NCBI GenBank assembly: GCA_024644045.1
Contig: JAHELT010000001.1
Span: forward strand, 48,209-112,208
Direction of reading: 5' to 3'
DNA: 64,000 nucleotides
Origin: Chromatiales bacterium
GTDB taxonomy: Bacteria > Pseudomonadota > Gammaproteobacteria > JAHELT01
Both the position numbers and the translations under genes were made by a program. Below are positions 26,278 to 45,672 of this stretch, in pieces. The notes beneath the pieces are model-generated. The model saw only the letters and a list, made by a program, of their open reading frames with translations, searched no databases and had not been told where the DNA came from. Position 1 is the stretch's first letter, and every line of letters begins with the position of its first letter.

Positions 26278-27297
26278 ATGAAGCTCAAATTCACAGTCGC
26301 GATATCGGCGGCGTTCGCCCTCTTGTCGCTGAGCGGCGGAACCCTGGCTGCCACGTTGCAAGATGTCAAAGCCAAAGGATTCGTCCAGTGCGGCGTCAGT
26401 CAGGGCGTACCCGGTTTTTCGAACCCTGACGAATCCGGCAACTGGTCGGGAATCGACGTCGACGTGTGCCGGGCCGTTGCCGCGGCCGTGTTCGGCGACG
26501 CCAACAAAGTCAAATTCAGCCCGCTGTCCGCCAAGGAACGCTTCACTGCGTTGCAGTCCGGCGAGATCGACATTCTGTCGCGCAACACCACGTGGACGCT
26601 GGTCCGCGACACGGCATTGGGCCTGAACTTTGCCGGCGTCAACTACTACGATGGTCAGGGATTTATGGTGCGCAAAGACCTCGGCATCAAAGATGCCAAG
26701 GAACTCGCCGGCGCGTCAGTATGCGTGAACATCGGCACCACGACCGAGCTGAACATGGCGGACTTTTTCCGCACCAACGGCATGGACTACAAGCCGGTGG
26801 TGTTCGAAAAAGCGGACGAAGTGGTCGCCGCCTATGACAGCGGCCGCTGCGACGTGTACACGACTGACCAGTCAGCGCTGGCCGCGCAACGCGTCAAGCT
26901 GAAAAATCCGGATGCGCACATGGTGCTGCCGAATGTTATCTCCAAAGAGCCGCTCGGTCCGGTGGTTCGCCACGGCGATGATCAGTGGCTGGATATCGTC
27001 AAGTGGTCCCTGTACGCGCAACTGGAAGCCGAAGAGTACGGCGTGAACTCCGGCAACGCGAAGAAGCTGAAAGACTCCAAAGATCCCGTCATACGTCGCC
27101 TGCTCGGCGCCGAAGGCGATCTGGGCAGCAACCTCGGACTGTCCAGCGATTGGGCGTACAACATCATCCGCCAGGTCGGAAACTACGCCGAAGTGTACGA
27201 CCGCCATGTGGGTCCGAACACGCCAGTCGGCCTGCCGCGCGGTGTCAACGAACTGTGGAAGAACGGCGGCATTCAATACGCAATGCCAGTACGCTGA
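26278..27297 (+). CDS. aapJ: General L-amino acid ABC transporter substrate-binding protein (AapJ/BztA-like)
   Basis: AGGAGG RBS then ATG. Signal peptide MKLKFTVAISAAFALLSLSGGTLAA; family 3 SBP. Confidence 0.88.
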   Translation: MKLKFTVAISAAFALLSLSGGTLAATLQDVKAKGFVQCGVSQGVPGFSNPDESGNWSGIDVDVCRAVAAAVFGDANKVKFSPLSAKERFTALQSGEIDILSRNTTWTLVRDTALGLNFAGVNYYDGQGFMVRKDLGIKDAKELAGASVCVNIGTTTELNMADFFRTNGMDYKPVVFEKADEVVAAYDSGRCDVYTTDQSALAAQRVKLKNPDAHMVLPNVISKEPLGPVVRHGDDQWLDIVKWSLYAQLEAEEYGVNSGNAKKLKDSKDPVIRRLLGAEGDLGSNLGLSSDWAYNIIRQVGNYAEVYDRHVGPNTPVGLPRGVNELWKNGGIQYAMPVR

Positions 27298-27343
27298 TCT
27301 GAATCCAGCGTAGGCGCGCCCGCTGGCACAGCGGGCGCGCCCT

Positions 27344-28585
27344 TTGTTCGACCGCAAGCCCGATGAGACTGGGGGGGGATTAATCGTGGCTGCTGGACCT
27401 AGCTCACACGTCACCGCCGCACCGCCGGCCCGGCCGCCGGTGTGGAACGACCCGCACTACCGTGCACTGTTCTTTCAGATCCTAGTCCTGGGCGCGGTAA
27501 TCCTCGCCGGCGTCTTCCTCGTCAACAACACGATCAGTAACCTCGAGAGGCAAGGCATCGCTTCGGGATTCAGCTTTCTCGACAAGACCGCTGGTTTCAG
27601 CATAGGCGAAAGCCTGATCGAGTACAGCGAGGAAGATACTTACGGGCGGACTTTTATGGTCGGCCTGCTGAACACCATGCTGGTGGCATTCATCGGCTGC
27701 ATCCTGGCAACAATTCTCGGCTTTATCGTTGGTATCGCACGGCTCTCTAGGAACTGGATGGTGTCCAGGATCGCCACCGTGTACATCGAGACTCTGCGCA
27801 ACATCCCGCTCCTGCTGCAGATCTTTTTCTGGTATTTCGCCGTACTGCGCGCGCTGCCGTCACCCCGCGAGAGTGCTACCTTCGGTGAGTCTTTTTTTCT
27901 GAACAACCGCGGCCTGTCCTATCCGCGGCCGCTTTACGAGGACGGATTCAGTCTCGTTGTGTGGGCGTTCATCGCCGCTATCGCGGCGATCGTTATCATT
28001 GCGCGCTGGGCGAGAAAGCGCCAGGACGCGACCGGCCAGCAGTTCCATACGTTTTATGTCGGCCTCGGTCTCATCATCGGTCTGCCGTTACTGGCAGCCA
28101 TCGTGACCGGCTTTCCGTTGAGCTGGGAATACCCGGTGCTCAAAGGCTTCAACTTCCAGGGCGGCAAGGTGATGTCGCCGGAATTCGTATCGCTGGTGCT
28201 AGCACTGTCCACCTATACGGCCTCGTTCATTGCCGAGATCGTACGCGCCGGTATCATGGCGGTGAGCCACGGGCAAACCGAGGCGGCGTTTTCGCTGGGA
28301 TTGCAGCGCGGGCCGACCTTGCGTTTGGTCATTATCCCGCAGGCCCTGCGCGTGATCATTCCGCCGCTCACCAGCCAGTATCTGAACCTGACCAAGAACT
28401 CATCGCTGGCCGCAGCCATCGCTTATCCGGATCTGGTGCTGGTGTTTGCCGGCACCGCGCTCATGCAGACGGGACAGGCGGTTGAGATCCTGTCGATGAC
28501 GATGGCGATCTACCTGCTGCTGAGTCTGCTCATTTCGGCGTTCATGAACTGGTACAACAAGAAAATGGCTCTGGTGGAGCGATAG
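27344..28585 (+). CDS. aapQ: Amino acid ABC transporter permease (AapQ/BztB-like)
   Basis: ~400-aa permease with the EAA-like motif region. An alternative GTG start at 27386 is possible. Confidence 0.88.
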   Translation: MFDRKPDETGGGLIVAAGPSSHVTAAPPARPPVWNDPHYRALFFQILVLGAVILAGVFLVNNTISNLERQGIASGFSFLDKTAGFSIGESLIEYSEEDTYGRTFMVGLLNTMLVAFIGCILATILGFIVGIARLSRNWMVSRIATVYIETLRNIPLLLQIFFWYFAVLRALPSPRESATFGESFFLNNRGLSYPRPLYEDGFSLVVWAFIAAIAAIVIIARWARKRQDATGQQFHTFYVGLGLIIGLPLLAAIVTGFPLSWEYPVLKGFNFQGGKVMSPEFVSLVLALSTYTASFIAEIVRAGIMAVSHGQTEAAFSLGLQRGPTLRLVIIPQALRVIIPPLTSQYLNLTKNSSLAAAIAYPDLVLVFAGTALMQTGQAVEILSMTMAIYLLLSLLISAFMNWYNKKMALVER

Positions 28586-28587
28586 TC

Positions 28588-29697
28588 ATGGCAGAACAAA
28601 CGCAAAATTACGCACCCGGGGCACACCCGGACCTGCCGCCGCCCCGCTCAGAAGTTGGCGTGATCGGCTGGTTGTACAAGAACCTGTTTTCCACGCCGTT
28701 GAATACGGTGCTCACGCTGGCGTCGCTGTATATTGTTTACCTGCTGGTACCGCCGGTGATCAATTGGGCCATCCTGGATGCCGACTGGATCGGCGACACA
28801 CGCGAAGCGTGCAGCCGCGAGGGCGCCTGCTGGGTGTTCATCAAAGTCTGGTTTAAACAGCTGATGTACGGGCGCTATCCGGTCGAGGAATTGTGGCGCA
28901 TCAACCTGGCGTACATCATCGGGGTGGCGGGTATCGCCGCCTTGCTGATTCCCAGCGTGCCCTACAAAAGCTACATCGGCGCGTTCATGCTGTTCATCTT
29001 TCCAATCGTTGCCTACTTCCTGTTTGTCGGCGATTCATTCGGCCTGATGTGGGTGGAAACGCCGCTGTGGGGCGGGTTGTTCCTGACCTTGGTAATCGCC
29101 ATAACCGGCATTGTGGCATCGCTGCCGATAGGCATAGTTCTGGCGCTTGGCCGCCGCTCGCAAATGCCGGTTGTGAAAGCCTTGTGCATCGCGTTCATCG
29201 AACTCTGGCGCGGCGTGCCGTTGATAACGGTGCTGTTCATGGCCTCGGTGATGTTCCCGTTGTTCATGCCGGAAGGCATGACTTTCGACAAGCTGCTGCG
29301 CGCCCTGATCGGCGTGATGCTGTTCTCCGCTGCCTATATGGCGGAGGTCATCCGCGGCGGCCTGCAGGCGATTCCCAAGGGGCAATACGAGGCAGCCGAG
29401 GCGCTGGGCTTGAGTTTCTGGAAAATGATGGGCCTGATAATTCTGCCGCAGGCCCTGAAGCTGGTCATACCCGGCATCGTGAATACGTTCATCGGTCTGT
29501 TCAAAGACACCACACTGGTGTTGATCATCGGCCTGTTTGACTTTCTAGGCATGTCACAGCTTGCTTCTACGAATCCGAACTGGCTGGGATTTTCGGTGGA
29601 AGGTTATGCGTTCTGCGCGTTTGTATTCTGGTGCTTCTGCTTCGGCATGTCGCGCTACAGCATGCACCTCGAGAAAGAGCTCCATACGGGGCATTGA
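28588..29697 (+). CDS. aapM: Amino acid ABC transporter permease (AapM/BztC-like)
   Basis: 369-aa polytopic permease starting 3 nt after aapQ. Confidence 0.88.
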   Translation: MAEQTQNYAPGAHPDLPPPRSEVGVIGWLYKNLFSTPLNTVLTLASLYIVYLLVPPVINWAILDADWIGDTREACSREGACWVFIKVWFKQLMYGRYPVEELWRINLAYIIGVAGIAALLIPSVPYKSYIGAFMLFIFPIVAYFLFVGDSFGLMWVETPLWGGLFLTLVIAITGIVASLPIGIVLALGRRSQMPVVKALCIAFIELWRGVPLITVLFMASVMFPLFMPEGMTFDKLLRALIGVMLFSAAYMAEVIRGGLQAIPKGQYEAAEALGLSFWKMMGLIILPQALKLVIPGIVNTFIGLFKDTTLVLIIGLFDFLGMSQLASTNPNWLGFSVEGYAFCAFVFWCFCFGMSRYSMHLEKELHTGH

Positions 29698-29727
29698 GTC
29701 GGTAGCGTTTTAACGGAGGTGAGTACC

Positions 29728-30516
29728 GTGGAGGAAGTTGAAGTTTCCCGACACAGCGATAAGGAGATGGTCGTCTCCGAAGACGTGATGATCGAATTGA
29801 AAGCCATGCACAAATGGTATGGCGAGTTTCACGTTCTCAAGAACATCGACCTGACCGTTCACAAAGGCGAGCGCATCGTTATCTGCGGCCCGTCCGGTTC
29901 AGGTAAGTCGACGCTGATCCGGTGCATCAATCGCCTGGAGGAACATCAACAGGGACAGATAATCGTCGAAGGGACCGAGCTGACCGGCGATCTCAAACAT
30001 ATCGAAATCATACGCCGCGACGTTGGTATGCTGTTCCAACACTTCAATCTGTTTCCGCACTTGACCGTGCTGGAGAATTGCGCGCTGGCACCGATCTGGG
30101 TGCGTAAAATGCCGCGTGGCGAGGCCGAAAAGATCGGCATGAAATACCTCGAGCGCGTGCGCATCCCGGAGCAGGCACATAAGTACCCCGGCCAGCTATC
30201 GGGCGGCCAGCAACAGCGCGTGGCGATCGCACGCTCGCTGTGCATGAGCCCCAAGGTCATGTTGTTCGACGAACCGACCTCGGCGCTGGATCCGGAAATG
30301 ATCAAAGAAGTGCTGGACGTGATGGTCGAACTGGCTGAAGAAGGCATGACCATGCTGTGCGTCACGCACGAAATGGGATTCGCGAAAACGGTCGCCAACC
30401 GGGTCATCTTCATGGATGACGGCGAGATCATCGAAGAAAATGAACCACAAGAGTTCTTCAACAACCCGCAGAATGACCGCACGAAACTGTTCTTGAGTCA
30501 GATTCTGCAGCACTGA
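29728..30516 (+). CDS. aapP: Amino acid ABC transporter ATP-binding protein (AapP/BztD-like)
   Basis: Walker [23 protein letters not shown] signature and Walker [15 protein letters not shown] start with a GGAGG RBS. Confidence 0.9.
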
Positions 30517-30592
30517 TCGCAGTGATCGCGCGCGCCTGCGCGATCGCTGCGGGGCGGACCTCTCAAGCGCTCTGCATAGCAGCCTGACACCT

Positions 30593-31609
30593 ATGTCCGC
30601 GAACCCAGTACTGGTCGACATAATGCGCGGCGAAATGGTCGAAAGCCGCCATCGCGGCGCCGTGGCGTTGGTAAACAACGCCGGTGAAACCTTGCTTGCA
30701 CTGGGCGATATCGACGAGGCGATCTACCCGCGTTCGGCGATCAAACCGCTGCAGACTATCTCTTTACTGGAAAGCGGCGCCGCCAAGCATTTCGGGCTGA
30801 GCGATGCGGAGATTTCACTCGCCTGCGCCTCGCACGGCGGCGAACCGGTACACGTTCAGGGTGTCGAACAATGGTTACACACCCTGTCCCTGGATAACCG
30901 TGATTTGGCGTGCGGTGTACATGCCCCGTTGCATGCCCCGGCCGCAGCGACGCTGATCGCGCAGGGACAATCGCCGTCGGCGGCACATAACAACTGTTCC
31001 GGAAAACACGCGGGGTTTCTTACGCTAGCCCGCCATTGGGATGCTGACACGCGTAGCTACACCACGCGAGATCACCCCACGCAGGTTGCATGGCGCGACG
31101 TACTTTGCGAACTCAGCGACGACGACCTGAGCGTGCGCCCGCACGGTATAGACGGCTGCGGAATACCGGTAGTCGGGTTACCGTTGCGCAACGTCGCTTT
31201 GGCCATGGCGCGCTTTGCTGATCCACGCCAGCTGGGGAAAGTGCGTCGCACTGCGATCGCGCGCATTCAACAGGCTCTAACCACCCAGCCCCTGATGATG
31301 GCGGGCACCGGGCGACTGTGCACCGAGACCATTCGCCTGACGCAGGGACGCGCATTGATCAAGACGGGCGCGGAAGGGGTGTACACCGGGGCGGTGCCTG
31401 CGGCCGGCATCGGTATCGCCCTGAAGATCGATGACGGGCATACGCGCGCCGCCGAGTGCGCCATCGCCACGGTGCTGCGCCGGATAAATGCCCTGGACGA
31501 TGGCGAGTGGCGGCAACTGCAGGCGCTCGCCTGCCCGCCGGTCTTCAACGTTACCGGAAAGCCGGTAGGACGCACGCAGGCTGCCGAGGCGCTGGAGTTC
31601 ACCTGGTAG
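30593..31609 (+). CDS. Asparaginase, Rhizobium-etli-type (Asparaginase_II / class-3 family)
   Basis: 338-aa product; family hallmarks include RSAIKPLQ, CSGKHAGFL and GIDGCGIP. It follows the amino-acid ABC operon. Confidence 0.75.
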   Translation: MSANPVLVDIMRGEMVESRHRGAVALVNNAGETLLALGDIDEAIYPRSAIKPLQTISLLESGAAKHFGLSDAEISLACASHGGEPVHVQGVEQWLHTLSLDNRDLACGVHAPLHAPAAATLIAQGQSPSAAHNNCSGKHAGFLTLARHWDADTRSYTTRDHPTQVAWRDVLCELSDDDLSVRPHGIDGCGIPVVGLPLRNVALAMARFADPRQLGKVRRTAIARIQQALTTQPLMMAGTGRLCTETIRLTQGRALIKTGAEGVYTGAVPAAGIGIALKIDDGHTRAAECAIATVLRRINALDDGEWRQLQALACPPVFNVTGKPVGRTQAAEALEFTW

Positions 31610-31661
31610 CCGGGTAAGCCGGGCACTACTGTGCTGTACACGTTATTTACGGGACAGCGCA

Positions 31662-32807
31662 CTACGTCGACGCCCCGGGCAACTCCTCGCCCGGCCCAGC
31701 GCTCGGCCACGCGTTGATCACGGCCTGCACCAGCGTGGCCAGCGGTATCGCGAAAAACACTCCCCACACGCCCCACAGGCCGCCGAAAAACAGCACCGCA
31801 ACGATGATCGCCACCGGATGCAGGTTGACTACCTCGGAGAACAGCACCGGCACCAGCACGTTGCCGTCCAGAAGCTGGATGATCTGATAAGCCAGCAGCA
31901 GGTACCAGAACTGCGCGGCCAGCCCCCACTGAAAATACGCGATCAGCGCGACCGGAATGGTCACCGCAATCGCCCCCACGAACGGAATGATCACCGAGAT
32001 GCCAACCAGAAACCCGAGCAGCAACGAAAAATTCAGCCCCATCAAGGCGAAGGTCACGTAGGTCACGGCCCACACGATCGCGATCTCGATGAACTTGCCG
32101 CGGATGTAGTTGGCGATCTTCTGATCTACCTCGACCCACACCTGAAACGACAGCTCGCGCTCACTCTCGTGCGGCAGGAACTGCGTTGTCCACTCGACGA
32201 TACGCTTCTTGTCCTTGAGCGAGAAGAACACCAGGATCGGAATCAGGATCACATAGATGGCGATAGTGAAGATGTTCACCGCGTGGGTCAGCGAGAACGA
32301 TACGATCGCCTGCCCCATGGATGTAATGCGTATGCGTATCTGCGCGAATATCTCCTGGATCTGCGGCTCGGTGATCATCGCCGGATACAGCTCGGGCAGC
32401 TTCAGCAGCATTTCCTGAAACCGCGCGGCCATCGTCGGAATCTCGAAAAACAACTGTGTTACCTGGCGCGAGAGGATCGGCACCAGACCCAGAAACAGAA
32501 ACAGGCACAGCAAAACAAACAGCAGCACCACCACGCTGGTCGCCAGCGTGCGCGGGATACGCCATTTCTCGAGCACCGTCACCACGCCGTCGAGCAGATA
32601 AGCAAACAACACGGCGATGAGTACCGGGGCGAGTATGTCCCCGAGCAACAGCACGATCGCCAGCGCGCTGACCAAAAAGATCACCAGGATCACCGCCTGC
32701 GGATCGGAGAAGTTGCGGCGATACCAGGATTTGATGAACTCGATCACGCCCTGACTCCAGCGCTCAAGAACCGACGCGCTCGCGCGCCCGGCAGTAGTCG
32801 CGGGCAA
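31662..32807 (-). CDS. AI-2E family transporter (PerM/YhhT-like)
   Basis: 381-aa, 8-TMS protein with lower GC than its neighbours. Its 5' end overlaps the LysR 3' end by 44 nt, so the true start may be downstream. Confidence 0.8.
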   Translation of the reverse strand: MPATTAGRASASVLERWSQGVIEFIKSWYRRNFSDPQAVILVIFLVSALAIVLLLGDILAPVLIAVLFAYLLDGVVTVLEKWRIPRTLATSVVVLLFVLLCLFLFLGLVPILSRQVTQLFFEIPTMAARFQEMLLKLPELYPAMITEPQIQEIFAQIRIRITSMGQAIVSFSLTHAVNIFTIAIYVILIPILVFFSLKDKKRIVEWTTQFLPHESERELSFQVWVEVDQKIANYIRGKFIEIAIVWAVTYVTFALMGLNFSLLLGFLVGISVIIPFVGAIAVTIPVALIAYFQWGLAAQFWYLLLAYQIIQLLDGNVLVPVLFSEVVNLHPVAIIVAVLFFGGLWGVWGVFFAIPLATLVQAVINAWPSAGPGEELPGAST

Positions 32808-33675
32808 ACTCGAGCAGCTCCTCCATCACGCCGTGGCGGAACTTCTGGCGCTGGCGCACGAACGAGAACGGCCGGGTCAGCGGCGGATCAAGGCTGCGCG
32901 CAATCAGGGTGCCGAGCTTCAGCTCCTTGCCGATGATGGCGCGCGAGACGATGGACACGCCGAGGCCGGCTTCCACCGCTCCTTTGATGGCTTCCGGACT
33001 GCCCAGCTCGAGTGACTTGTTGAGATCGCGTTCGCCGAGCCCATGCGTGATTAGAAAGTTCGAGATCACCTCACGGGTTCCCGAGCCGGCCTCGCGGAAC
33101 ACGAACGGCACGCCGACCAGCTGCTGAACGGCAACCGAGTTGCCGGCGGCCAGCTCCTGTGCCGGATGCGCGATCACCACCAGCTCGTCCATCAGGCAGG
33201 TCTCCACCAGCAGCAGCTTGTTGCTGACGCCACCCTCGACTACACCGAGGTCGATCTCGTTCTCCTCCACCAGATGCACGACGCTTTCGGTATTCGCCAC
33301 GGTGAGGCTGATGCTCATCTCCGGATAGCGTTCCTTGAAGCGGCCGAGCAGGCTCGGCAGCAGGTACTCGGCAATCGTGGTGCTGGCGCCGACCGTCAGT
33401 GCACCGCTCACCTCACCCGTCAACTGACGAACCGACGCCTCCATTTCCTCATAAAGCGCAATTATCCGGTCGGAGTACTCGAAGACGCGTGCACCGGCCT
33501 CGGTCAGGCTGATCTTGTTGTGCCCGCGATCGAACAGGCGCGTATTGAAGTCTTCCTCCAGCTGCCTGATCTGGAAGGTCACGGCCGGCTGCGTCATATT
33601 CAGGGCCTCCGCCGCCTTGGTGAAGCTGAGCAGCCGCGCTACCGCGTGAAATACCTGAATGCGTCGATCGGACAT
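32764..33675 (-). CDS. LysR-family transcriptional regulator
   Basis: N-terminal HTH (MSDRRIQVFHAVARLLSFTKAAEALNMTQPAVTFQIRQLEEDF) and a LysR substrate-binding domain. I took the start at the internal ATG, 33675. Confidence 0.88.
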   Translation of the reverse strand: MSDRRIQVFHAVARLLSFTKAAEALNMTQPAVTFQIRQLEEDFNTRLFDRGHNKISLTEAGARVFEYSDRIIALYEEMEASVRQLTGEVSGALTVGASTTIAEYLLPSLLGRFKERYPEMSISLTVANTESVVHLVEENEIDLGVVEGGVSNKLLLVETCLMDELVVIAHPAQELAAGNSVAVQQLVGVPFVFREAGSGTREVISNFLITHGLGERDLNKSLELGSPEAIKGAVEAGLGVSIVSRAIIGKELKLGTLIARSLDPPLTRPFSFVRQRQKFRHGVMEELLEFARDYCRARERVGS

Positions 33676-33767
33676 AGGTTTACCGGCAAACGAGTGGAGA
33701 TAGTAGCAGGTCGCCGGTATCACATAAACAAACCTTATAGCCCGCCGCAGCCGGCGACCGGTTAAAG

Positions 33768-35027
33768 ATGTGCGTCCGCGGGCCGATTGAACCGACAACC
33801 CGTGGCGACTGCTGGAGGCTCGTGGTGGTTGATTGTTTTATCGGACGACAGCCCATCTTTGATCGCCGCGACAAGGTGTATGCCTACGAGCTGCTGTACC
33901 GCGGCAGCCTGGACGACCGCGCCGGCGACGTGGATCTCGACGCGGCGACCTCGCGGGTGATAATGAACGCGTTCGTGGAGATCGGGCTGGACAACGTGGT
34001 CGGGCACCGCCTGGCGTTCATCAACATGACGCGTCAGTTCCTGCTCACGCCGGAGCTCATGTGCTTTCCCCCTGAACAGGTGGTGCTGGAGATCCGCGAT
34101 GACGTTGGCGTTGACGACGAGATTCGCAGCGCCGTCAACCGGCTCAAGGTGCAGGGTTACACGATCGCGCTGGACGGTTACCGCAGCGACGCGGCACACG
34201 CGCCGCTGTTCCCGTTCAGCGACATCGTCAAGCTGGATGCCCGGGCCCTGGATGAGCACGCCCGCGACACGGAGCTGCGCAAGCTGGCCGGCCAGGACGT
34301 GATGATCATGGCCAAGCGCGTCGAGACGCAGCGGGAGCGTGAACGCCTGGCCGGGCTGGGTTGCGACTACTTCCAGGGTCACTGCCTCCGGCGCGCCGAC
34401 GTGGTGAGCACGAAACGTCTGCCGGCCAACAAGCTGGCCGTGCTGGAGCTGCTGGCCAGGCTCAACGACAAGGACACCGGCATCGAGGAACTGGAGCGTC
34501 TGATCAGCCTGGATCCCTCGCTCAGCTTGCGGGTGCTGCGTTTCGTCAACTCGCCGCTCAGCGGTCTGGTCAGAACGGTCGACTCGATCCACCAGGCGGT
34601 TGTCTACCTCGGGCGCAACATCATCCGTAACTGGGTCATGCTGCTGGCCATCGCCAACCTCGACGACGTGGTTCCGGAGCTGGTCACCACGGCAATGGTG
34701 CGCGCCAGACTGTGCGAGAGTCTGGCGCGGGAATGCGCGCTGGAAAGCGCGGACTCGTACTTCACCGTCGGCATGTTCTCGCTGGTCGATGCCATCATAG
34801 GCGTGTCGCTCGAGTCGCTGCTCGAGTCGCTGCCGTTTTCGGAGGAGGTGCAGGCGGCTCTGCTGGAACAAGCCGGTCAACGCGGTGCGGCACTGGAGTG
34901 CTCCAAAGCGCTGGAAATTGGCGCGCCCGCCGGCGCGCGGTACGCCGACGTGTCCTCCGAGCGCCTCGCGGAGCTCTACCTGGAAGCGCTGCAGTGGGCC
35001 GACCTGACCACCGACACCATACACTAG
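33768..35027 (+). CDS. EAL + HDOD domain signalling protein (COG3434 type)
   Basis: The EAL-like region has ELL in place of the canonical EAL motif (YELLYRG). The HDOD domain is C-terminal (LVRTVDSIHQAVVYLGRNIIRNWVMLLA). The gene is divergent from the LysR regulator. Confidence 0.75.
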   Translation: MCVRGPIEPTTRGDCWRLVVVDCFIGRQPIFDRRDKVYAYELLYRGSLDDRAGDVDLDAATSRVIMNAFVEIGLDNVVGHRLAFINMTRQFLLTPELMCFPPEQVVLEIRDDVGVDDEIRSAVNRLKVQGYTIALDGYRSDAAHAPLFPFSDIVKLDARALDEHARDTELRKLAGQDVMIMAKRVETQRERERLAGLGCDYFQGHCLRRADVVSTKRLPANKLAVLELLARLNDKDTGIEELERLISLDPSLSLRVLRFVNSPLSGLVRTVDSIHQAVVYLGRNIIRNWVMLLAIANLDDVVPELVTTAMVRARLCESLARECALESADSYFTVGMFSLVDAIIGVSLESLLESLPFSEEVQAALLEQAGQRGAALECSKALEIGAPAGARYADVSSERLAELYLEALQWADLTTDTIH

Positions 35028-35739: not shown

Positions 35740-37446
35740 ATGCGTGCTCAAGCCTTCCATCTGATCACTCTCAAGGAAACACCGGCCGACGCTGAGATCG
35801 TCAGTCATCAGCTGATGATTCGCGCCGGCATGATCCACCGTCTCGCGTCCGGTCTGTACACGTGGCTGCCGCTCGGCCAGCGCGTGCTGCGCAAGGTGGA
35901 ACAGGTGGTACGCGAGGAAATGGACCGCGCCGGCGCACTCGAGATGAGCATGCCCGCGGTACAGCCCGCAGAGCTGTGGCAGGAGTCGGGGCGCTGGAAC
36001 GACTTCGGGCCGGAACTGCTGCGCTTCCGGGACCGGCACGAGCGCGACTTCTGCTTCGGCCCCACGCACGAGGAAGTGATTACCGACATCGCGCGGCGGG
36101 ACTTGAAAAGCTACCGCCAGCTGCCGGTCAACTACTACCAGATCCAGACGAAGTTCCGCGACGAGATCCGTCCGCGTTTCGGCGTGATGCGGGCGCGCGA
36201 ATTCATCATGAAAGACGCTTACTCGTTTCATGCAAGCCCAGCCTCGCTGCAGCGGACCTACGATGTAATGTACACCGCCTACCGGCGGATATTCACACGC
36301 CTCGGGTTGCACTACCGCGCGGTGGAAGCGGACTCCGGCGCAATCGGCGGCAAGACCTCGCACGAGTTTCACGTGCTGGCGGACAGCGGCGAGGACGCAA
36401 TCGCCTTCTCCGACGAAAGCGACTACGCGGCCAACGTCGAGCGCGCCCCCGGCATGCCCGCAGGCAAACGACCGGCAGCCCGCGAACAGCTTCGCGAAGT
36501 CGCCACCCCCGAAACGCACACGATCAAAGCGCTGACTGAGTTCCTCGACGTTGACGCCGAACGCTGCCTGAAGACGCTGCTCGTCGCGGGCAGCGAGGCA
36601 CCGGTGGTGGCGCTCGTGCTGCGTGGCGACCATGAGCTGAATGCGATCAAGGCGTCCCGGCAGGAGGGCGTCGCCAATCCGCTGCGCATGGCGGACGAGG
36701 CGGCGATCCGGGAGGCCACGGGCGCCGGTGCCGGCTCCGTGGGCCCCGTGGGGCTGTCGGTTCCGCTGATCGCCGACCACGCCGCAGCCGCAGTGGCGGA
36801 TGCCGTTTGCGGCGCCAACCGGGACGGCTACCACTACACGGGCGTCAACTGGGGGCGCGACCTGGAGGAGCCGCAGGTTGCCGATCTGCGTAACGTGGTC
36901 GGCGGCGACCCGAGTCCGGACGGGCGCGGCGCGCTGCGTATCGCCCGCGGCATCGAAGTGGGACACATATTTCAGCTCGGCGACAAGTACAGCCAGAGCA
37001 TGCAGGCCAGTGTGCTCGATGAGGAGGGTAAACCGGTGATGATGCAGATGGGCTGTTACGGTATCGGCGTCACCCGGGTGGTGGCCGCGGCGATCGAACA
37101 GAATCACGATGAGCACGGCGTCATGTGGCCCGATCCGATCGCGCCGTTTCAGATAGCCCTGCTGCCCATCAATGCAGCGAAATCGGAGCGCGTCCGCGCG
37201 GCCGCCGACGAGCTTTATGAAAAGCTGCTGGCCGACGGATACGAAGTGTTGCTCGACGACCGGGGACTGCGTCCCGGCGTGATGTTCGCCGACATCGACC
37301 TGATCGGGATTCCCCATCGCCTGGTGCTCGGCGAGAAAGGGCTCGATGCGGGCACCATCGAGTACAAGGCGCGTCGCGCGGCCGGCACCGAGCACGTCGA
37401 TCTGGCGGCGCTGGAGACGTTTCTCGCCGAGCGCGTACAATCGTGA
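35740..37446 (+). CDS. proS: Proline--tRNA ligase
   Basis: 568-aa bacterial-type ProRS with an editing domain insertion. The N-terminus is [24 protein letters not shown]. Confidence 0.96.
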
Positions 37447-38051
37447 CACTGCGAGCGTTGCCGCTGGTACTGTCACTGGCAGTACTCGCCGGGTGTGCCG
37501 GATTACGCGGCGCCGGCACCGCGCCCGCTGCCGGGCAGGCCGCCGGTGAGGCGCAGAGGATAGCGCAGCTGAGCGCCGTAATCGTCGCGCTCGGCACCGA
37601 AGTGGATGCCGATGAGGCACGGCGTGCCGCTGAGGTCGCCGTGCGCTACCCGTTGCAGCTGGCCGCACAGTACCAGCTCACCACGCCACCCCTGTGGCAC
37701 AACACGCTGGTCAACCTCGGTGTCAAACCGCGCGGTCTGTGCGTGCACTGGACGCGCGATATGCTGATCCGGCTGAGAGAGCTGCGCTTGAGCACGCTCA
37801 CCACGCATTGGGGTGTGGCCAACGCCGAGGCCGTGTTTCGTATAGAACACAGCACCGCGATCATCGGCATCCGTGGCGAACCGATGGAATCCGGCGTCGT
37901 GCTGGACCCGTGGCGCGACTCGGGCCGGCTGTTCTGGTCGAAGGTCGGCGACGACACCCGCTACCGCTGGCGACCGCTTGCTGAGGTGCAGGCGGAGCGC
38001 CGGCGCAAACAGACCGAAGTGGCCGAGTCCCGCGCGTATCCGACTCGCTAG
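37443..38051 (+). CDS. Lipoprotein of unknown function
   Basis: Lipobox LAVLAGC-A. Its GTG start overlaps the proS TGA (GTGA). Confidence 0.6.
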
Positions 38052-38063
38052 CCCGTCGCCACG

Positions 38064-39848
38064 TCAGGCGCCGGTGGGCGGCGGCGTCACGCGCAGCACT
38101 TCATCGACGCTGGTCACACCGGCAGCCACTTTCTGCGCACCGCTCAGGCGCAGCGGTTTCATCCCCTCCTGGACCGCGGCGCGCCGGATATCGGCGATGT
38201 CGGACTGGTCCTTGACCAGGCTGCGAATCAGCGGCGAGAACTTGAAAATCTCGTAGATGCCGGTGCGGCCCATGTACCCGGTGTTGCGGCACTCCAGACA
38301 GCCCACCGGGACGTTCGCCTGCGACGGCGCCTTGGAAGACCAGGGACGCACCAGATCCCGCCACATCCCCGGCTCCAGCGCGGTAGGTGCGCGGCAGTGC
38401 GGGCACAGCGTACGGGCGAGCCGCTGCGCGACCACCCCGAGCAGCGTGGCATTGATCAGATAAGAAGGGACCCCCAGCTCCAGCAGGCGGGTGATCGCCG
38501 AGGGCGCATCGTTGGTGTGCAGGGTCGACAGCACCAAGTGCCCCGTCAGCGCTGCCTGCGTCGCCATCTCCGCGGTCTCTATATCGCGGATCTCGCCGAC
38601 CATGATGATGTCCGGATCCTGACGCAGCAGCGTGCGAATGCCGGAGGCGAAGTCCAGACCGATGTTGGGCTGCACCTGCATCTGGTTGAACTCGTTCATC
38701 ACCAGCTCGATCGGGTCCTCGATCGTGGAAACGTTGACCTCCGGGACCGCCACCTGTTTCAACGTCGAGTAGAGCGTGGTGGTCTTGCCCGATCCCGTCG
38801 GGCCGGTCACCAGGACGATGCCGTGAGGATGGTCGACCAGTTCCTGCCAGACGTCGTTCTCGGCGCGGCTGAAACCGAGCTGGGTCGCCGTCTTGACCAG
38901 CACATCGGGATTGAAAATGCGCATCACCAGCTTTTCGCCGAACGCGGTCGGCATGGTGGACAGGCGCAGCTCGACCTCGCGCCCGTTCTGATCGCGCGTT
39001 TTCAGTCGCCCGTCCTGGGGCCGGCGTTTTTCGGCAACGTCCATACGCCCGACGATCTTGATGCGGCTGGTCACCGCAGCCATTACCGCCGCCGGGATCT
39101 CATAAACGTTGTGCAGCACGCCATCGATGCGGAACCGCACCGAGCCGTGCTCGCGCCTGGGCTCGAGGTGGATGTCACTGGCGCGCTGATCGAACGCGTA
39201 CTGCAGCAGCCAGTCGACGATGTTCACCACGTGCTGGTCGTTGGCGTCCAGACCGCCGGCACGGCCCAGCTCCACCAGCTGCTCTAGATTCTGGACCCCC
39301 GACGGGACGGCATGGGCACCGTCTTCCGATGCGCTGCGCACCGAGCGCGACAGCGAATAGAACTCCGTGAGATAGCGCTGAATCTGATCGGGGCTGGAGA
39401 AGACCCGGACGATCTGCTTGCGCAGGATATTCTCGAGCTCCTGTTCCCACTCTCGCACGAAGGGTTCGGCGACCGCGAACGTGACGCTCGTCTCGGTGAC
39501 CTTGATCGGCAGGATGCAGAAGCGGGCGGCGTAGGCGTAAGACACCACGCTGGTCACCGACGGCACGTCGACCTTCAGGGGATCGATACGGTGGTACGGT
39601 AAATCGACGCGGTCGGCCAGCCACTGGGTGAGAAAATCGACCGTCAGCTTCTGCCCGGACTCCGCGGCGATATTGCGTTCCGCGATGAAGATCAGCGCGT
39701 GTTTGGCGCGGTGTTCACCGCCTTTCGCAACGGCTTTCGCCAGACGCGCTTCGTCCGGCAGCGCGAGACCTTCCTGAACGAGGTCGTCGACGATCTGATC
39801 GATCGGCAAGCGGCCCTCGAACTTGGTGTCTGCCAGAACCTGATTCAT
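38064..39848 (-). CDS. GspE/PilB-family secretion ATPase (orphan; no gsp/pil partners nearby)
   Basis: Walker A VLVTGPTGSGKTTTLYS, Asp/His boxes (DPDIIMVGEIRD; LVLSTLHTNDAPS) and a C-terminal tetracysteine CPHC...CLECR. The ATG at 39848 overlaps the acyP TGA (ATGA). Its N-terminal domain does not fit the MshE c-di-GMP motif. Confidence 0.85.
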   Translation of the reverse strand: MNQVLADTKFEGRLPIDQIVDDLVQEGLALPDEARLAKAVAKGGEHRAKHALIFIAERNIAAESGQKLTVDFLTQWLADRVDLPYHRIDPLKVDVPSVTSVVSYAYAARFCILPIKVTETSVTFAVAEPFVREWEQELENILRKQIVRVFSSPDQIQRYLTEFYSLSRSVRSASEDGAHAVPSGVQNLEQLVELGRAGGLDANDQHVVNIVDWLLQYAFDQRASDIHLEPRREHGSVRFRIDGVLHNVYEIPAAVMAAVTSRIKIVGRMDVAEKRRPQDGRLKTRDQNGREVELRLSTMPTAFGEKLVMRIFNPDVLVKTATQLGFSRAENDVWQELVDHPHGIVLVTGPTGSGKTTTLYSTLKQVAVPEVNVSTIEDPIELVMNEFNQMQVQPNIGLDFASGIRTLLRQDPDIIMVGEIRDIETAEMATQAALTGHLVLSTLHTNDAPSAITRLLELGVPSYLINATLLGVVAQRLARTLCPHCRAPTALEPGMWRDLVRPWSSKAPSQANVPVGCLECRNTGYMGRTGIYEIFKFSPLIRSLVKDQSDIADIRRAAVQEGMKPLRLSGAQKVAAGVTSVDEVLRVTPPPTGA

Positions 39849-40168
39849 CGTCTGATCCGGAACTCCGAGAAGTCTTCCCACGGCTGCGGCGCGCAGCTCA
39901 CGTCGCTCACGATGGCGTACGCTGGGCCCTTATGCAACCACGCCCGAAACGTCCGCAGCGCCGATTCCTCGCCGCAGGCCAGGGCCTCTACCGCACCGTC
40001 CCGGCGGTTTCTGACCCAGCCGGTTACGTGCAACCCCTGTGCCATCGCGAGCGCCGCCGCGCGAAAAGCCACGCCCTGCACCCGCCCCCGCACGATACAG
40101 CGCACGCACCGCACTAGGGTTGGCTCACCGATCAGCTCCAGGTGCCGTGCAAGCCGGTGGATTGTCAC
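39845..40168 (-). CDS. acyP: Acylphosphatase
   Basis: Both acylphosphatase signatures are present: VRGRVQGVAFR and GWVRN. Confidence 0.85.
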   Translation of the reverse strand: MTIHRLARHLELIGEPTLVRCVRCIVRGRVQGVAFRAAALAMAQGLHVTGWVRNRRDGAVEALACGEESALRTFRAWLHKGPAYAIVSDVSCAPQPWEDFSEFRIRR

Positions 40169-40198
40169 CGCTCGGTGCCGACAATGCTGGGATCGACA

Positions 40199-40969
40199 TC
40201 ACGGTAGCTCAACACCCACGGCGGTGCCCGGGAAGAAACGTTCTTGCGGGGGATGCACAAAGCGCAGCACGAACGCCGCGCCGGGCTGCTCTGCGCTCGG
40301 CAACGTCAGTGCCACTACCTCGGCAGCGTACTCCTGCTTGTCGATCGATACCCTGGCCGGATCGCCCAGGCGCACGGCGAGAAACGTGGTCACCGACACG
40401 GGGACGTACACCTCCATCTGCCCAGCCATTGCGATGGTGACGTGCGGCTGCGCGCGAAAACGGCTCACCACCAGCTCTCCCGGCTGCACGCTGACGGTCA
40501 GCACGATCGCAGGCCGCGGCGCCCGCAGCTCGCTCTGCGCGAGCGCCAGCGCGGCCAGCTCCAACTCCGCAAGGTTGCGGCGGTGGGTGGCATCGGCCGC
40601 CTCGAAGGCCAGCTCCGCATCGCGCAGCTCGTAGTCGGAAATCACCGTCCTCGCATGCAGGTCGGCGGCCGTTTCCAGCTCACGCCGGGCCTCGGCCAGG
40701 ACCGGCGCACCTATGTCCAGCAGGGCCTGCGCGCGCTGGCGGCGCGTCTCGAACGTCCGCGCGTCCAGGCGTGCCAGGACCTCGCCGGCCGCAACCTGCA
40801 TGCCCGGCTTCGCCGGCACTTCGCTGACCACGCCCGAGACGGGGAAGCTGAGGCGCGTCTGACCCGCCCAGCGCAGCTCGCCGCTGAGCGATTCGGCAGC
40901 CTGCACCGGGGCGCTCACCAGCAGCGTCGCCAGTGCGGCACGGATCACGTTACTCATGGTACAGGACAC
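40199..40969 (-). CDS. HlyD-family periplasmic adaptor (short; cleavable signal peptide, no membrane anchor)
   Basis: Biotin-lipoyl-like and beta-barrel segments (VSGVVSEVPAKPGMQVAAGEVLARLD; coiled-coil). Its start overlaps the tolC stop. Confidence 0.75.
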   Translation of the reverse strand: MSCTMSNVIRAALATLLVSAPVQAAESLSGELRWAGQTRLSFPVSGVVSEVPAKPGMQVAAGEVLARLDARTFETRRQRAQALLDIGAPVLAEARRELETAADLHARTVISDYELRDAELAFEAADATHRRNLAELELAALALAQSELRAPRPAIVLTVSVQPGELVVSRFRAQPHVTIAMAGQMEVYVPVSVTTFLAVRLGDPARVSIDKQEYAAEVVALTLPSAEQPGAAFVLRFVHPPQERFFPGTAVGVELP

Positions 40970-42282
40970 TAGTCGTCTCCATCGGGGTCGCGTGACACGA
41001 CCTGCCGGATGACTTCGTTGTGCGTACCCAGGAGGGCATGCAACCGCTCCCAGGCCAGCGTATGCGAGTAGGCGACGCGCGCGGTCTCGACGTGCGCCGC
41101 GGAGAACTCGGCCATCGCATCGCCCAGGTCCGAACGCACGGAACGCTCGTACAGCGCCCGGCTGCGATCCAGGTACAGATCGCGGTAGTCCTCGTTCACC
41201 AGGGTCTCGCGCCGGCGCACACGCAGCAACGTTATCCGCTGCCAGACACCCAGCAGCGCATGGCGCAGCTGGGCTTCGAAGCGGTGCAGCTCGGCACGCG
41301 CCAGGCGGCGCCCGGCGAGCGCCTCGGCGATGCTCGCCTCGCCGCGCTCACCGGTATACAGCGGCACATTGAGGTTCACGCCCAGGCGCCATTCGTCGTT
41401 GCCGGACTCGTCGCGCGAGTAGGCGGCAACCTCGGCGCCGGCATGCAGGGTGGGTCGCACGCTGGCGCGCGCCGACGACAGCGCCTGCGCGCTGGCGCTC
41501 AACCGCTCGCGCAATGACAGCAGCCGCGGGTTACTGGCAGTGGCGGTCTCCAGCAGCTGCTCGTAGGCCGGGAGGTCCCTGTCCCAGTCGACCAGTTCGG
41601 GTTCGGCGAGATTGGCCGACAGCTCACCCGGTCGGTTCATGGTCTGCGCCAGCGCTTCACGCGCCAGGCGCTGGCGCTGCTCCGCCGCCGTGCGCTTGGC
41701 CAGAAACCGCTCATACTCCGCTTCGGCCTCCAGCAGCTCGATGTCCGAGACCTGGCCGAACGCGCTGCGCTCGCGCAACCGATCAAAACGCAGAAACGTC
41801 ATGGTCATCGCCTCGTTGCGCGCAATGAATTCCAGGTCCGCAATCAGTGCATCGAAAAAGCTCTGCATTACCCGCAGACGCTGCTCGCTGACCCGGTCGA
41901 CGAGCTCCCATTGGAACTGCTGCACCTCGGCGCTCGCGGCAGCGTCGCGTGCACTGCTTCGCCCGAAGTCATACAGCAGCGTATCGGCGTTGAGACTGAC
42001 CTTGTGATCGTCATGGTCCCGGTCAAAGGCCCGCTCGCTGGGGCCGATCCAGCGTGCGCGCGTGTTCAGTGACACGGTCCAGTCATCGGCAGCCGTACCG
42101 GCACGCCGCACCGCGTTGGCACGCTCGACCGCCGCCTGGGCGCGCTCGACCTCAGGGTGCCCGGTGCCGACCTGTTCCAGCGCATAGTCCAGCGTCAGCG
42201 GATCGGGCAGCGACTGGGGAGAGGCGCGGAGCCCCGCGCTCAGGAACAACGCCAGCAGCGAAAGCACGAACGCGCGCGTCAC
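40969..42282 (-). CDS. TolC-family outer membrane efflux protein (OEP)
   Basis: 437-aa product with a signal peptide and two OEP repeats. Confidence 0.85.
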   Translation of the reverse strand: MTRAFVLSLLALFLSAGLRASPQSLPDPLTLDYALEQVGTGHPEVERAQAAVERANAVRRAGTAADDWTVSLNTRARWIGPSERAFDRDHDDHKVSLNADTLLYDFGRSSARDAAASAEVQQFQWELVDRVSEQRLRVMQSFFDALIADLEFIARNEAMTMTFLRFDRLRERSAFGQVSDIELLEAEAEYERFLAKRTAAEQRQRLAREALAQTMNRPGELSANLAEPELVDWDRDLPAYEQLLETATASNPRLLSLRERLSASAQALSSARASVRPTLHAGAEVAAYSRDESGNDEWRLGVNLNVPLYTGERGEASIAEALAGRRLARAELHRFEAQLRHALLGVWQRITLLRVRRRETLVNEDYRDLYLDRSRALYERSVRSDLGDAMAEFSAAHVETARVAYSHTLAWERLHALLGTHNEVIRQVVSRDPDGDD

Positions 42283-42359
42283 GACTCAGGCCCTGGAGGC
42301 GCGTCGCGCGTGTGCGCAAACCCGCGCGTGTCCGCTTACGCGGCCGATCGGCCCGGCGA

Positions 42360-42899
42360 TCATTGCCCGGCGGAACGCTTGCGCGCACGTTTGTAACGCG
42401 TGAAGTTGGTTTCTGCGTACAAGCCCTGGGCAACGAATTCGCCCAGCCACATGAACTCGTCGATGCCCGATGCGGCCCCGGTGTAGCGCTGCACCAGCTG
42501 GCCCTGCAGATCGTAAAAAGCAAACACCGGCGTGGCCCGCACGCGATTCTGCACCGTGGCGAACTCGTGCTCGAGCAGGGTGCGGCCCTGAAAGTCGACG
42601 ACCTCGACCTGCCCCTCGATATCCACTGTGAAGCACAGGAAATGCTCGCGGTAGAAATCCTGTACGCGGGGTTGGTTCAGCACCGTGGACTTCATGCGGT
42701 GACAGAACGGGCAGTCATCCATTTCGAAGAACAGCAGCACGCCTTTCTTGTTCTCCGCGCTGGCCCGCTGCAGCTCCTCGGCGAAATCGCCGAAGCCGGT
42801 TTCGAAGAAAAACTGATACGGATCGCGCGGGGCGCCCGCGCGCGCCGCGAAGGTCGCCAGTATCAGCACTAGGGGAAGGCACTTCAGGCAGCTGCGCAC
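42360..42899 (-). CDS. Periplasmic thioredoxin-fold protein (CPFC active site)
   Basis: Signal peptide, then LLFFEMDDCPFCHRM, a thioredoxin-like CxxC motif. Confidence 0.7.
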   Translation of the reverse strand: MRSCLKCLPLVLILATFAARAGAPRDPYQFFFETGFGDFAEELQRASAENKKGVLLFFEMDDCPFCHRMKSTVLNQPRVQDFYREHFLCFTVDIEGQVEVVDFQGRTLLEHEFATVQNRVRATPVFAFYDLQGQLVQRYTGAASGIDEFMWLGEFVAQGLYAETNFTRYKRARKRSAGQ

Positions 42900-43026
42900 C
42901 TCGCGCTCCTTGACCTGGTTACTATTGGCCGTAAAGCATACGAGAAATGCAACATTTTATCCCGCACGCGCCCTGCCGGCATTGATTTGCGACAACCGGA
43001 AGGCGCAACGCGCTCCTGAGAAATGC

Positions 43027-43084: not shown

Positions 43085-43756
43085 TCAGTTGTTGCTGAGG
43101 TACTCCAGGTCGCTGGCCTCAACCGCGCCGAGCGCCCAGGCACCGCGATTGCGTGCATGCCTGACGGCCGCCTCGACTTCCGTCTGATACGGCTGCTGGC
43201 GGAACTCCAGCCACTGGCCCGGGTAGATCAGGTCAGCGTCCTCGATGATCCCGGTGTTGTTGCGATAGATCAGCGGCCACTGGTAGGGATCGCCGTAGAC
43301 GAAGTTCAGCCCGGAGATGGCCCAGAGCGAATCGCCCGTCTCGACCTCGTAGCGACCCATGGTGTTGGCGGGGGGCGGCTCCATGGTGGAGGTCGTCATG
43401 GTCGGCGTGGACGGTTCGAACTTGGCGTTCTCCGCCTGGTACTGGCGCAACGCATTCTCCGCCTGGCGCTTGGCCTGGTTGGCAAGCTTGATCGCCTTGT
43501 CGTTGTCGCACTCGGGGTCCCGGGCAGCGGCTTCGGCCTGCTTGATCAGCTTTTCGGTATCCCGCCACGCGTAGGCGACCGCCTGGGCTTCCTGGGCCGC
43601 CGCTTTAGCGGCATCGATGGCATTCCGCGCCGCGGCACTCATCTCGCACGGCGGCGGCGCCTCGGTCATCGTCGTTTGCTGTTGGGCACAGCCTGCTCCC
43701 AATCCCAGCACCAGCGCTGCTACACCAAACTGTCTGCAATACGCACGGATATTCAT
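43085..43756 (-). CDS. LysM peptidoglycan-binding lipoprotein
   Basis: Lipobox LGAGC-A and a C-terminal LysM domain (YEVETGDSLWAISG...DLIYPGQWL). It has a GGAGG RBS and a long AT-rich 5' UTR. Confidence 0.8.
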   Translation of the reverse strand: MNIRAYCRQFGVAALVLGLGAGCAQQQTTMTEAPPPCEMSAAARNAIDAAKAAAQEAQAVAYAWRDTEKLIKQAEAAARDPECDNDKAIKLANQAKRQAENALRQYQAENAKFEPSTPTMTTSTMEPPPANTMGRYEVETGDSLWAISGLNFVYGDPYQWPLIYRNNTGIIEDADLIYPGQWLEFRQQPYQTEVEAAVRHARNRGAWALGAVEASDLEYLSNN

Positions 43757-43936: not shown

Positions 43937-44236
43937 TCAGTTGGCAACGTCGCCGGCAGCGCGCTCGCGGGCTTCGATCGCGAGCATTTTTGCTTCGCGT
44001 GCGTGCTCGCGCGCCTTGCTGTAGTCGCCGCGGCGCAGATCGGATTCGGCCGCTTCGAGCAGCGCGCTGGCGCGGGTGACCCCGTGCTGCGAGGCGTCGG
44101 GCGCGCTCGCATCGACCACCTGCCGCGCGGCCTGCAGGGCCTGGCGGGCATCGCTCATTTCCTGAATGGGCGCCGAGGCGCAGCCCCAGAGCAATCCGGC
44201 CCCGAGGAGGTATACGACGGACTTCCGCATGGACAT
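43937..44236 (-). CDS. DUF4398-like small lipoprotein
   Basis: 99-aa product with lipobox LLWGC-A and a helical, Ala/Arg-rich body. Confidence 0.6.
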   Translation of the reverse strand: MSMRKSVVYLLGAGLLWGCASAPIQEMSDARQALQAARQVVDASAPDASQHGVTRASALLEAAESDLRRGDYSKAREHAREAKMLAIEARERAAGDVAN

Positions 44237-44362
44237 AGCTTACAGTATGCTCACGCCCGCTTCTTTGGCCGCCGCACGCTAACACCGAGCAGACGGAAGC
44301 GTCAAGGCGCCCCGGCAAGCCCCGCGCCGAGGCCCTTCGGACCCGTCGGAAGAGGTTTCCTG

Positions 44363-45672
<1,310 letters not shown>

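Follow-up and report, generated by a model that had tools for sequence, protein, structure and literature searches.

A stretch of 64,000 nucleotides from a Chromatiales bacterium (contig JAHELT010000001.1, positions 48,209 to 112,208; hereafter the window) carries five minus-strand open reading frames (ORFs) with coding-type GC3. In order, they encode a thioredoxin-like protein, a TolC-family outer-membrane protein, a short periplasmic adaptor, an acylphosphatase and a PilB/GspE-type ATPase. Our analysis indicates that the locus is quite probably a set of independent units that have come to lie side by side in a conserved housekeeping block (purM...hda...ArsC...proS), and not one machine. The first three genes form a conserved three-gene cassette that has been dispersed both vertically and horizontally. 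The ATPase, judged by its sequence, belongs to the TfpB family, so that this part of the locus is a new member of something already known. An earlier reading of the last four genes, made without database searches (the sequence-only reading), had offered two possibilities: two unrelated orphan pairs that happen to be adjacent, or an uncharacterised envelope-spanning module. The first of these comes closer, but the lines between the units were drawn in the wrong places, since the trio, the pairing of the acylphosphatase and the identity of TfpB all turned out differently.

Separate distributions of tfpB and the cassette

We compared 83 loci carrying tfpB from Gamma- and Betaproteobacteria (Pseudomonas, Moraxella and Psychrobacter among them), 80 taken from species-representative genomes and three from metagenome look-ups; 71 of them have at least 3 kb of sequence upstream of tfpB. 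Neither tblastn nor hidden Markov models built from the trio proteins found a trio-type thioredoxin, TolC or short adaptor in any of the 83. Starting from the adaptor gave the same picture, with tfpB downstream in none of the 21 adaptor loci that have at least 1.5 kb on that side. Among the other loci examined, orthologues of tfpB and the TolC/adaptor genes lie together in one alone (L085), and tfpB and the cassette are independent of each other across genomes. One adaptor gene near tfpB (locus L011) was considered and set aside: at 80.9 bits it scores far under the 203 bits or more of the short adaptor family and is an ordinary adaptor, not a trio member.

The genes next to tfpB vary by lineage. 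They include a spermidine-synthase-like methyltransferase with UDG, TctAB, GlnE, an M20 peptidase, GlyS and, in about six loci, GGDEF-EAL proteins. Because its neighbours change with lineage, tfpB is a true orphan.

The most direct view of how the two parts separate comes from contigs whose TfpB is 89% identical to that of the window. On either side, these contigs are collinear with the window, and they keep the SAXB-LysM, acylphosphatase (acyP), tfpB, lipoprotein and proS genes, but they lack the segment corresponding to window positions 43019..40093, which is exactly the thioredoxin, TolC and adaptor genes. Since precisely this block is missing from a collinear relative, we regard it as a unit of inheritance.

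The thioredoxin-channel-adaptor cassette

The first gene of the cassette (42360..42899, minus strand) encodes a periplasmic thioredoxin-fold protein of 179 residues with a signal peptide and a CPFC-H motif. It lies on the same strand, 77 bp upstream of the gene for a divergent TolC-family outer-membrane factor (OMF; 40969..42282, minus strand), a protein of 437 residues with a signal peptide and no lipobox Cys. The third gene (40199..40969, minus strand) encodes the short soluble periplasmic adaptor, which has 256 residues when read from its GTG; NCBI's own protein begins at an ATG 12 nt further downstream (40957) and has 252. The sequence-only reading had recognized the channel and adaptor as a pair, which is real and conserved, but it missed the thioredoxin gene upstream, and the actual unit is the trio.

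To define the adaptor family, a profile of four relatives of about 255 residues was compared with 1.84 billion representatives. In all, 521 clusters (50% identity) came out with E ≤ 1e-30; lengths among the best 150 run from 243 to 306 residues. A broader profile splits the short members, which score at least 203 bits, from ordinary adaptors, which score at most 145. Among 39 adaptor loci, 35 of them from a metagenome scan, 24 have at least 2 kb of upstream sequence; the thioredoxin gene is present in all 24, and in 23 the adaptor gene is immediately preceded by a TolC-like gene. The genes are often packed so tightly that stops and starts overlap, as they do between thioredoxin and OMF, OMF and adaptor, and adaptor and acyP in L120, at the first two of these junctions in L122, and between adaptor and acyP in L121 and (as an ATGA-type overlap) in L004.

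Several Gammaproteobacteria (L087, L098, L120, L121) likewise carry the cassette within the purM-ArsC...proS block, and elsewhere it sits in other contexts; in a Thermodesulfovibrionales genome (L122), its surroundings are entirely different. Named carriers are Ca. Endoriftia persephone and related tubeworm symbionts, Thiohalophilus thiocyanatoxydans and a Thermodesulfovibrionales metagenome-assembled genome (MAG). A tblastn search of 72,556 plasmids found no match to the adaptor or the thioredoxin, so nothing points to carriage of the cassette on plasmids. Database entries label members of the adaptor family with the generic name 'efflux RND transporter periplasmic adaptor subunit'. We found no description of the trio in the literature searched, which included papers on adaptors without an anchor or membrane-proximal domain and on the TolC of Endoriftia. 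A proteomics paper on Endoriftia mentions an abundant 'TolC' without specifying the gene.

The neighbours of the trio include an AhpC/TSA-type redoxin, BrkB, UPF0114, fumarase, hemA/prfA, DUF599, a TonB receptor and a P-type ATPase, and no inner-membrane transporter or pump is conserved beside it in the 39 loci. A YeeE/YedE-type 'Sulf_transp' membrane protein is encoded directly upstream of the trio in three metagenomic loci (L109, L115, L118). In L118 (3064-10605), a gene of the SoxB-like 5'-nucleotidase family precedes the Sulf_transp gene and a SulP/STAS transporter gene follows the trio; a SulP gene is downstream of the trio in five loci, L118 included. The sulfur genes at L109, L115 and L118 are the sole functional hints that the neighbourhood of the trio provides.

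Two further observations concern the region upstream of the cassette. In L096, L098, L104, L107 and L120, the gene for the CPFC thioredoxin is directly preceded by a gene for another periplasmic redoxin, which is 150–175 residues long and of the AhpC/TSA (TlpA-like) type. In L122, a DUF302 gene (4895-5356) lies just upstream of the trio.

The adaptor matches the Pfam families HlyD_3, HlyD_D23 and Biotin_lipoyl_2. AlphaFold2 (pLDDT 94.3) predicted a short N-terminal helix (residues 3–14), a lipoyl domain, an alpha-hairpin and a beta-barrel. The two hairpin helices (residues 66–102 and 108–140, of 37 and 33 residues) are flanked by beta domains, and the protein ends with the barrel at residue 252, leaving no membrane-proximal domain. 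The top Foldseek matches were MacA, AcrA, MexA and TMexC, with query TM-scores of 0.67–0.77 and E-values of about 1e-17 for MacA, AcrA and MexA; these targets have at least 340 residues and were matched over the three-domain core. By sequence, the best Protein Data Bank (PDB) matches were TriA of TriABC (6vej, 1.2e-45) and then MacA (1e-30). The RND_mfp model TIGR01730 gave 92.2, just under its cut-off of 94.9, over model positions 8–243 of 322.

The N-terminus of the adaptor reads MSNVIRAALATLLVSAPVQA followed by AESL. Its hydrophobic stretch is short, at roughly 12–14 residues, and ends at VQA/AE; almost all family members have Ala at position 21. With no Cys in the N-terminus, there is no lipobox, and neither the sequence nor the model contains a transmembrane anchor or a lipobox Cys. 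The signal peptide is probably cleaved, as these residues suggest. The earlier description of a cleavable signal peptide in place of an anchor or lipobox therefore stands as far as the missing anchor and lipobox are concerned, with the cleavage itself predicted.

In MacA, AcrA and HlyD, the RLS motif (RxxxLxxxxxxS) has been shown to bind the tip of TolC (PMC3391258). Most short adaptors keep this motif at the hairpin tip: of 46 family members, 44 have R96, 42 have L100 and 44 have S107, but the window's copy has Thr at the Arg position. It is well established that in characterised adaptors the membrane-proximal domain or anchor contacts or holds the pump (reviewed in PMC8277102). Going by the model, the short adaptor is without the parts that couple adaptors to pumps. 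It has in common with MacA, TriA and AcrA the core of lipoyl domain, alpha-hairpin and beta-barrel and the position of its gene directly after an OMF gene; the RLS-type motif is shared by most of its family, with T-L-S in the window's copy. It differs from them in its length of about 255 rather than roughly 340–400 residues, in forming a separate score cluster, in lacking a membrane-proximal domain, a lipid or transmembrane anchor and an adjacent pump, and in being paired with a CPFC thioredoxin.

The TolC-family protein matches PF02321 (OEP) at 92.5 bits in two repeats. It scored 98.4 against the type-I-secretion TolC model TIGR01844 (cut-off 225.15; residues 29–420, model positions 3–399 of 414) and 22.1 against TIGR01845, the NodT lipoprotein subfamily (cut-off 210.05). 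No PDB chain matched it by sequence at E ≤ 1e-5, so no closer subfamily can be named.

The thioredoxin-like protein matches Thioredoxin_2 (64.3 bits) and Thioredoxin_7 (42.1 bits). CPFC is kept in 22 of the 24 non-redundant homologues recovered beside adaptor genes, within a strongly conserved family motif, FE-x-(D/E)(D/E)-CPFC-H-R-M-K. Its nearest solved relative is 4fyb, annotated as 'thiol:disulfide interchange protein DsbC' (E = 6e-8, a weak match), which has a CSYC motif and which we take to be HP0377 of Helicobacter pylori, a CcmG-like reductase. The two share the thioredoxin fold, with the CxxC and Thr-Pro pair aligning, and the cassette protein carries a signal peptide. However, its motif is CPFC-His, and it is tied genetically to an outer-membrane channel and not to cytochrome c maturation. 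We considered whether the thioredoxin acts on the channel or the adaptor and rejected this, because neither the TolC-like protein nor the mature adaptor contains a single Cys; it must act on something else.

How might such a cassette work? Through their alpha-hairpins, the adaptors would come together into a funnel seated on the tip that the TolC-like trimer extends into the periplasm. Since the adaptor has no membrane-proximal domain or anchor and no pump gene accompanies it, the duct may be fed from the periplasm, and the redox-active thioredoxin would process the cargo or hand it over to the duct. We propose tentatively, on the basis of sequence features, that the cassette may be a pump-independent duct. 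The cassette resembles the parts of a tripartite pump, lacks three things that mark pump adaptors (membrane-proximal domain, anchor and cognate transporter) and adds a thioredoxin.

The main alternative is that the TolC-like protein and its adaptor belong to an ordinary tripartite pump of the MacB, RND or MFS type whose transporter is encoded elsewhere, with the thioredoxin an unrelated neighbour. The closest solved relatives of the adaptor are indeed pump adaptors, both by sequence (TriA, MacA) and by fold (MacA, AcrA, MexA), its TIGR01730 score is only just below the cut-off, and an RLS-type motif for binding TolC is kept in the family. We nonetheless find this alternative somewhat doubtful. 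The adaptor has neither membrane-proximal domain nor anchor, no pump gene is conserved beside it in the 39 loci despite their many contexts, and a thioredoxin gene that occurs in all 24 loci, with stops and starts that often overlap, is no chance neighbour. Pfam scans of the 64-kb window found no ABC exporter, RND or MFS pump, which agrees with the earlier statement that no pump lies nearby; the transporters it does encode are one amino-acid ABC importer, one AI-2E transporter and one EamA transporter.

A metal-binding, CusB-like role for the adaptor was also considered and rejected, as no Cys, His or Met is conserved in the family. In the CusCBA system, the small periplasmic chaperone CusF is encoded with the adaptor and channel, and CusA is the RND pump. 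The parallel with our cassette is a small periplasmic protein that could hand a periplasmic substrate to a duct. However, CusF is no thioredoxin, Cus has its RND pump, and the short adaptor family is without a conserved Met, His or Cys metal site.

A pump-independent duct could be taken one step further, to a self-contained, pump-less device that moves a periplasmic thiol-reactive product over the outer membrane, with the CPFC thioredoxin loading or processing the cargo. We think it unlikely that this more specific version is correct as it stands. A candidate cargo would be sulfane sulfur or polysulfide in sulfur-oxidising bacteria, in which we know of no route for this export step. From the bias of the cassette toward sulfur oxidisers and the sulfur-transport genes beside it, one may reasonably guess at a sulfur or thiol-reactive cargo, though this is only a guess. 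The cassette occurs in hundreds of sequence clusters, including the symbiont of the Riftia tubeworm. If it is pump-less, it would represent a different use of TolC-type ducts and a candidate for unexplained export from the periplasm to the outside in sulfur oxidisers. If a pump is borrowed in trans, adaptors can work without a membrane-proximal domain.

The ATPase

The last of the five genes (38064..39848, minus strand) encodes a protein of 594 residues that we call TfpB, a stand-alone PilB-like type IVa pilus extension ATPase. It passed the NCBIfam equivalog model for TfpB, NF053534, with 883.9 bits against a cut-off of 850, residues 12–589 matching model positions 5–583 of 584. It fell short of the canonical PilB model TIGR02538 (509.1, cut-off 675.65) and of the GspE model TIGR02533 (499.1, cut-off 630.25). 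The Pfam matches are T2SSE at 421 bits and, for the N-domain, 'MshEN' at 54 bits. The ATPase motifs are intact (Walker A GPTGSGKT at 349, Asp box/Walker B IIMVGEIRD at 414, His box TGH at 435), and a tetracysteine site is formed by CPHC at 482 and CLEC at 517. Among solved chains, the nearest are PilB proteins, ahead of GspE. The family is very large: the matches at E ≤ 1e-50 number more than 8000, and none of the top 120 has less than 63% identity to the window protein. Databases use the name 'general secretion pathway protein E' for its relatives, which occur in Moraxella, Psychrobacter, Pseudomonas and many other Beta- and Gammaproteobacteria.

In Acinetobacter baylyi, TfpB was described as a homologue of PilB that is phylogenetically distinct, and type IVa pilus extension in that organism requires it together with PilB (Ellison et al. 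2021, PMC8213720). The name was applied to homologues in which the usual pilB-pilC synteny is missing, and PilB was present in 15 of the 16 species with a TfpB homologue (PMC8213720). Because the family is defined without pilC synteny, a missing platform gene beside the ATPase is normal. Pfam scans of the window found no pilC/gspF, pilD, pilin or secretin gene, and no pilC, pilD, pilin or secretin gene lies beside tfpB in the 83 homologous loci. The sequence-only reading had noted the absence of a GspF/PilC platform, pilin and secretin and called the gene an orphan of the GspE family; no platform gene is nearby, as it said, but the family is a described one in which the orphan state is the rule.

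The window protein is like TfpB of A. baylyi in passing the equivalog model, in its PilB-like architecture, in having all ATPase and zinc-site motifs and in not being encoded beside pilC or pilD. It differs in its source, an uncultured gammaproteobacterium of high GC content that has sulfur oxidisers as relatives, and in the overlap of its gene with an acylphosphatase gene. If the A. baylyi protein is a guide, TfpB would form a hexamer in the cytoplasm, dock on the PilC/PilM platform of a pilus machine whose genes lie at another site, and contribute to the start of pilus polymerisation. By this analogy, we suggest that TfpB of the window works for type IVa pili whose machinery is encoded in another part of its genome. 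In many genomes, such genes are labelled 'GspE/PulE family' orphans, although they are actually second pilus motors of the TfpB type.

It is very improbable that the protein is instead a GspE of type II secretion, or an ATPase of the MshE type gated by cyclic di-GMP (c-di-GMP), with partners elsewhere and no part in pilus extension. In favour of that alternative are the T2SSE and 'MshEN' matches, the database name of the relatives, an EAL-HDOD gene 3 kb away and GGDEF-EAL genes after tfpB in about six other genomes. However, the protein failed the GspE model and passed that for TfpB, and the solved structures closest to it are those of PilB proteins, with GspE behind. MshE-type c-di-GMP receptors carry two tandem 24-residue motifs, RLGxx(L/V/I)(L/V/I)xxG(L/V/I)(L/V/I)xxxxLxxxLxxQ (Wang et al. 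2016, PMC5013675). Neither the strict motif nor the published relaxed form matched anywhere in the first 220 residues of the ATPase or of its 120 closest homologues. TfpB of the window thus shares with the MshE/MshEN ATPases the superfamily and an N-domain that Pfam names 'MshEN', but it is without both 24-residue motifs, even in relaxed form. A c-di-GMP-binding N-domain, which had been proposed for modeling from the sequence-only reading, thus finds no support at the motif level; the Pfam match reflects a generic N-domain only.

The surroundings of tfpB contain genes for c-di-GMP enzymes. In the window, the EAL-HDOD gene is at 33768-35027 on the plus strand, about 3 kb from tfpB, and large PAS-GGDEF-EAL proteins are encoded next to tfpB in L011, L016, L019, L022, L057 and L059, mostly directly downstream and in unrelated genomes. 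These neighbours hint at c-di-GMP control of TfpB, although the MshEN binding motif is absent.

Other features beside tfpB differ between loci. In the window, the ends of tfpB and of the convergent lipoprotein gene are only 12 bp apart (38028-38068), while in L002, the relative with the 89%-identical TfpB, there is about 875 bp more between the two (3037-3913), including a minus-strand ORF of 101 codons. A DUF302 gene follows tfpB in L005-L007, three gammaproteobacterial MAGs. In L003, an AhpC/TSA-type redoxin gene (7463-7969) comes directly before tfpB, and the trio is absent there.

Gene junctions, the acylphosphatase and flanking genes

ORFs and Pfam matches confirmed the four same-strand genes from tolC to the ATPase in the order first given, on the minus strand. 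Both overlaps that had been pointed out can be read in the sequence: the G of the TolC stop TAG is the first base of the adaptor's GTG start, and the acyP TGA and the ATPase ATG overlap as ATGA. The 30-bp gap said to precede acyP depends on the start codon. The gene (39845..40168, minus strand) encodes 107 residues from the GTG at 40168, which leaves the 30 bp, and 89 residues from the in-frame GTG at 40114, which leaves 84 bp; the shorter product has the length of its homologues. The protein is an acylphosphatase by PF00708 (74.5 bits, gathering threshold 22.5, model positions 2–85 of 85) and by NF011022 (91.4, cut-off 91).

The sequence-only reading described the acylphosphatase as welded to the ATPase, and the comparison speaks against this. 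Just five loci have acyP upstream of tfpB, and all five belong to the window's own clade. It comes directly after the adaptor in 10 of the 32 loci with room for it, often with overlapping stop and start, and it is kept between the SAXB-LysM gene and tfpB in relatives that are without the trio. acyP is a resident of the synteny backbone that is often co-translated with the adaptor and is found with tfpB in this clade only.

Several points weigh against a locus of independent units and a pump-independent cassette. L085, with 74% DNA identity to the window, repeats the order trio, acyP and tfpB, and is the only other locus that has both parts. There is no predicted terminator above chance between the five genes, and two of their junctions overlap. 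Given these features and the small gaps, the five genes are probably co-transcribed in this organism, which leaves room for a lineage-specific functional link. The promoter and terminator scan itself gave counts at the chance level and is uninformative about operon structure. The comparison loci are mostly short metagenomic contigs, and for pil machinery or unpartnered pumps this genome was read within the 64-kb window. At the hairpin tip, the window adaptor and its closest relative (P0122) read T-L-S, with Thr replacing Arg at 96. Finally, the case for a pump-independent mechanism is built on the absence of domains and on gene neighbourhood.

Co-transcription here is outweighed by the absence of co-occurrence elsewhere, and we still regard the locus as independent units placed next to one another. 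It is hardly credible that the four or five genes together encode a single new apparatus spanning the envelope, in which the GspE-like ATPase energises export through adaptor and TolC with acyP as an accessory: the shared strand, tight packing, overlapping TolC/adaptor and acyP/ATPase junctions, lack of a terminator-like site above chance and recurrence of the order in L085, the one close relative in which tfpB and the TolC/adaptor genes occur together, are set against the absence of the trio from all 83 tfpB loci and of tfpB from all 21 trio loci, a closest relative with context that keeps acyP-tfpB without the trio, a soluble ATPase with no inner-membrane component in the window to link it to the periplasm, and a pass under the TfpB equivalog model.

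The synteny backbone on the upstream side is marked by a gene outside the cassette (43085..43756, minus strand) for a protein of 223 residues, with an N-terminal region like the SoxAX-binding protein (SAXB) and a C-terminal LysM domain. It scored 65 bits against the SAXB model NF052674, under the cut-off of 95, and matched LysM as well. This gene keeps the same upstream position in relatives with and without the trio. On the downstream side, the markers are proS and a gene for a lipoprotein of 202 residues (35740..38051, plus strand), convergent with tfpB. proS was called from Pfam class-II tRNA synthetase, editing and anticodon-binding domains, and these markers also adjoin the locus in L001, L002, L087, L097, L100, L103 and L121.

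The base composition of the window, about 64–70% GC, is that of a high-GC bacterial chromosome. Pfam scans of some 55 further ORFs revealed housekeeping genes such as ffh, radA, ispA, dxs, dapA and proS, together with hda, purM, yhdP and rng. The GC fraction falls to 0.57–0.62 at positions 26000-34000, compared with about 0.66–0.70 elsewhere, in a segment that carries the amino-acid ABC importer, asparaginase II, the AI-2E transporter and a LysR regulator. This segment may have been acquired horizontally, although the relative with the 89%-identical TfpB keeps the same gene order. An ArsC/Spx-type ORF at 44003-44728 (plus strand) has 241 codons as listed, with the ArsC domain confined to residues 125–237. 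Its homologues are 115–121 residues long, and the sequence suggests that translation probably begins some 120 codons beyond the first GTG.

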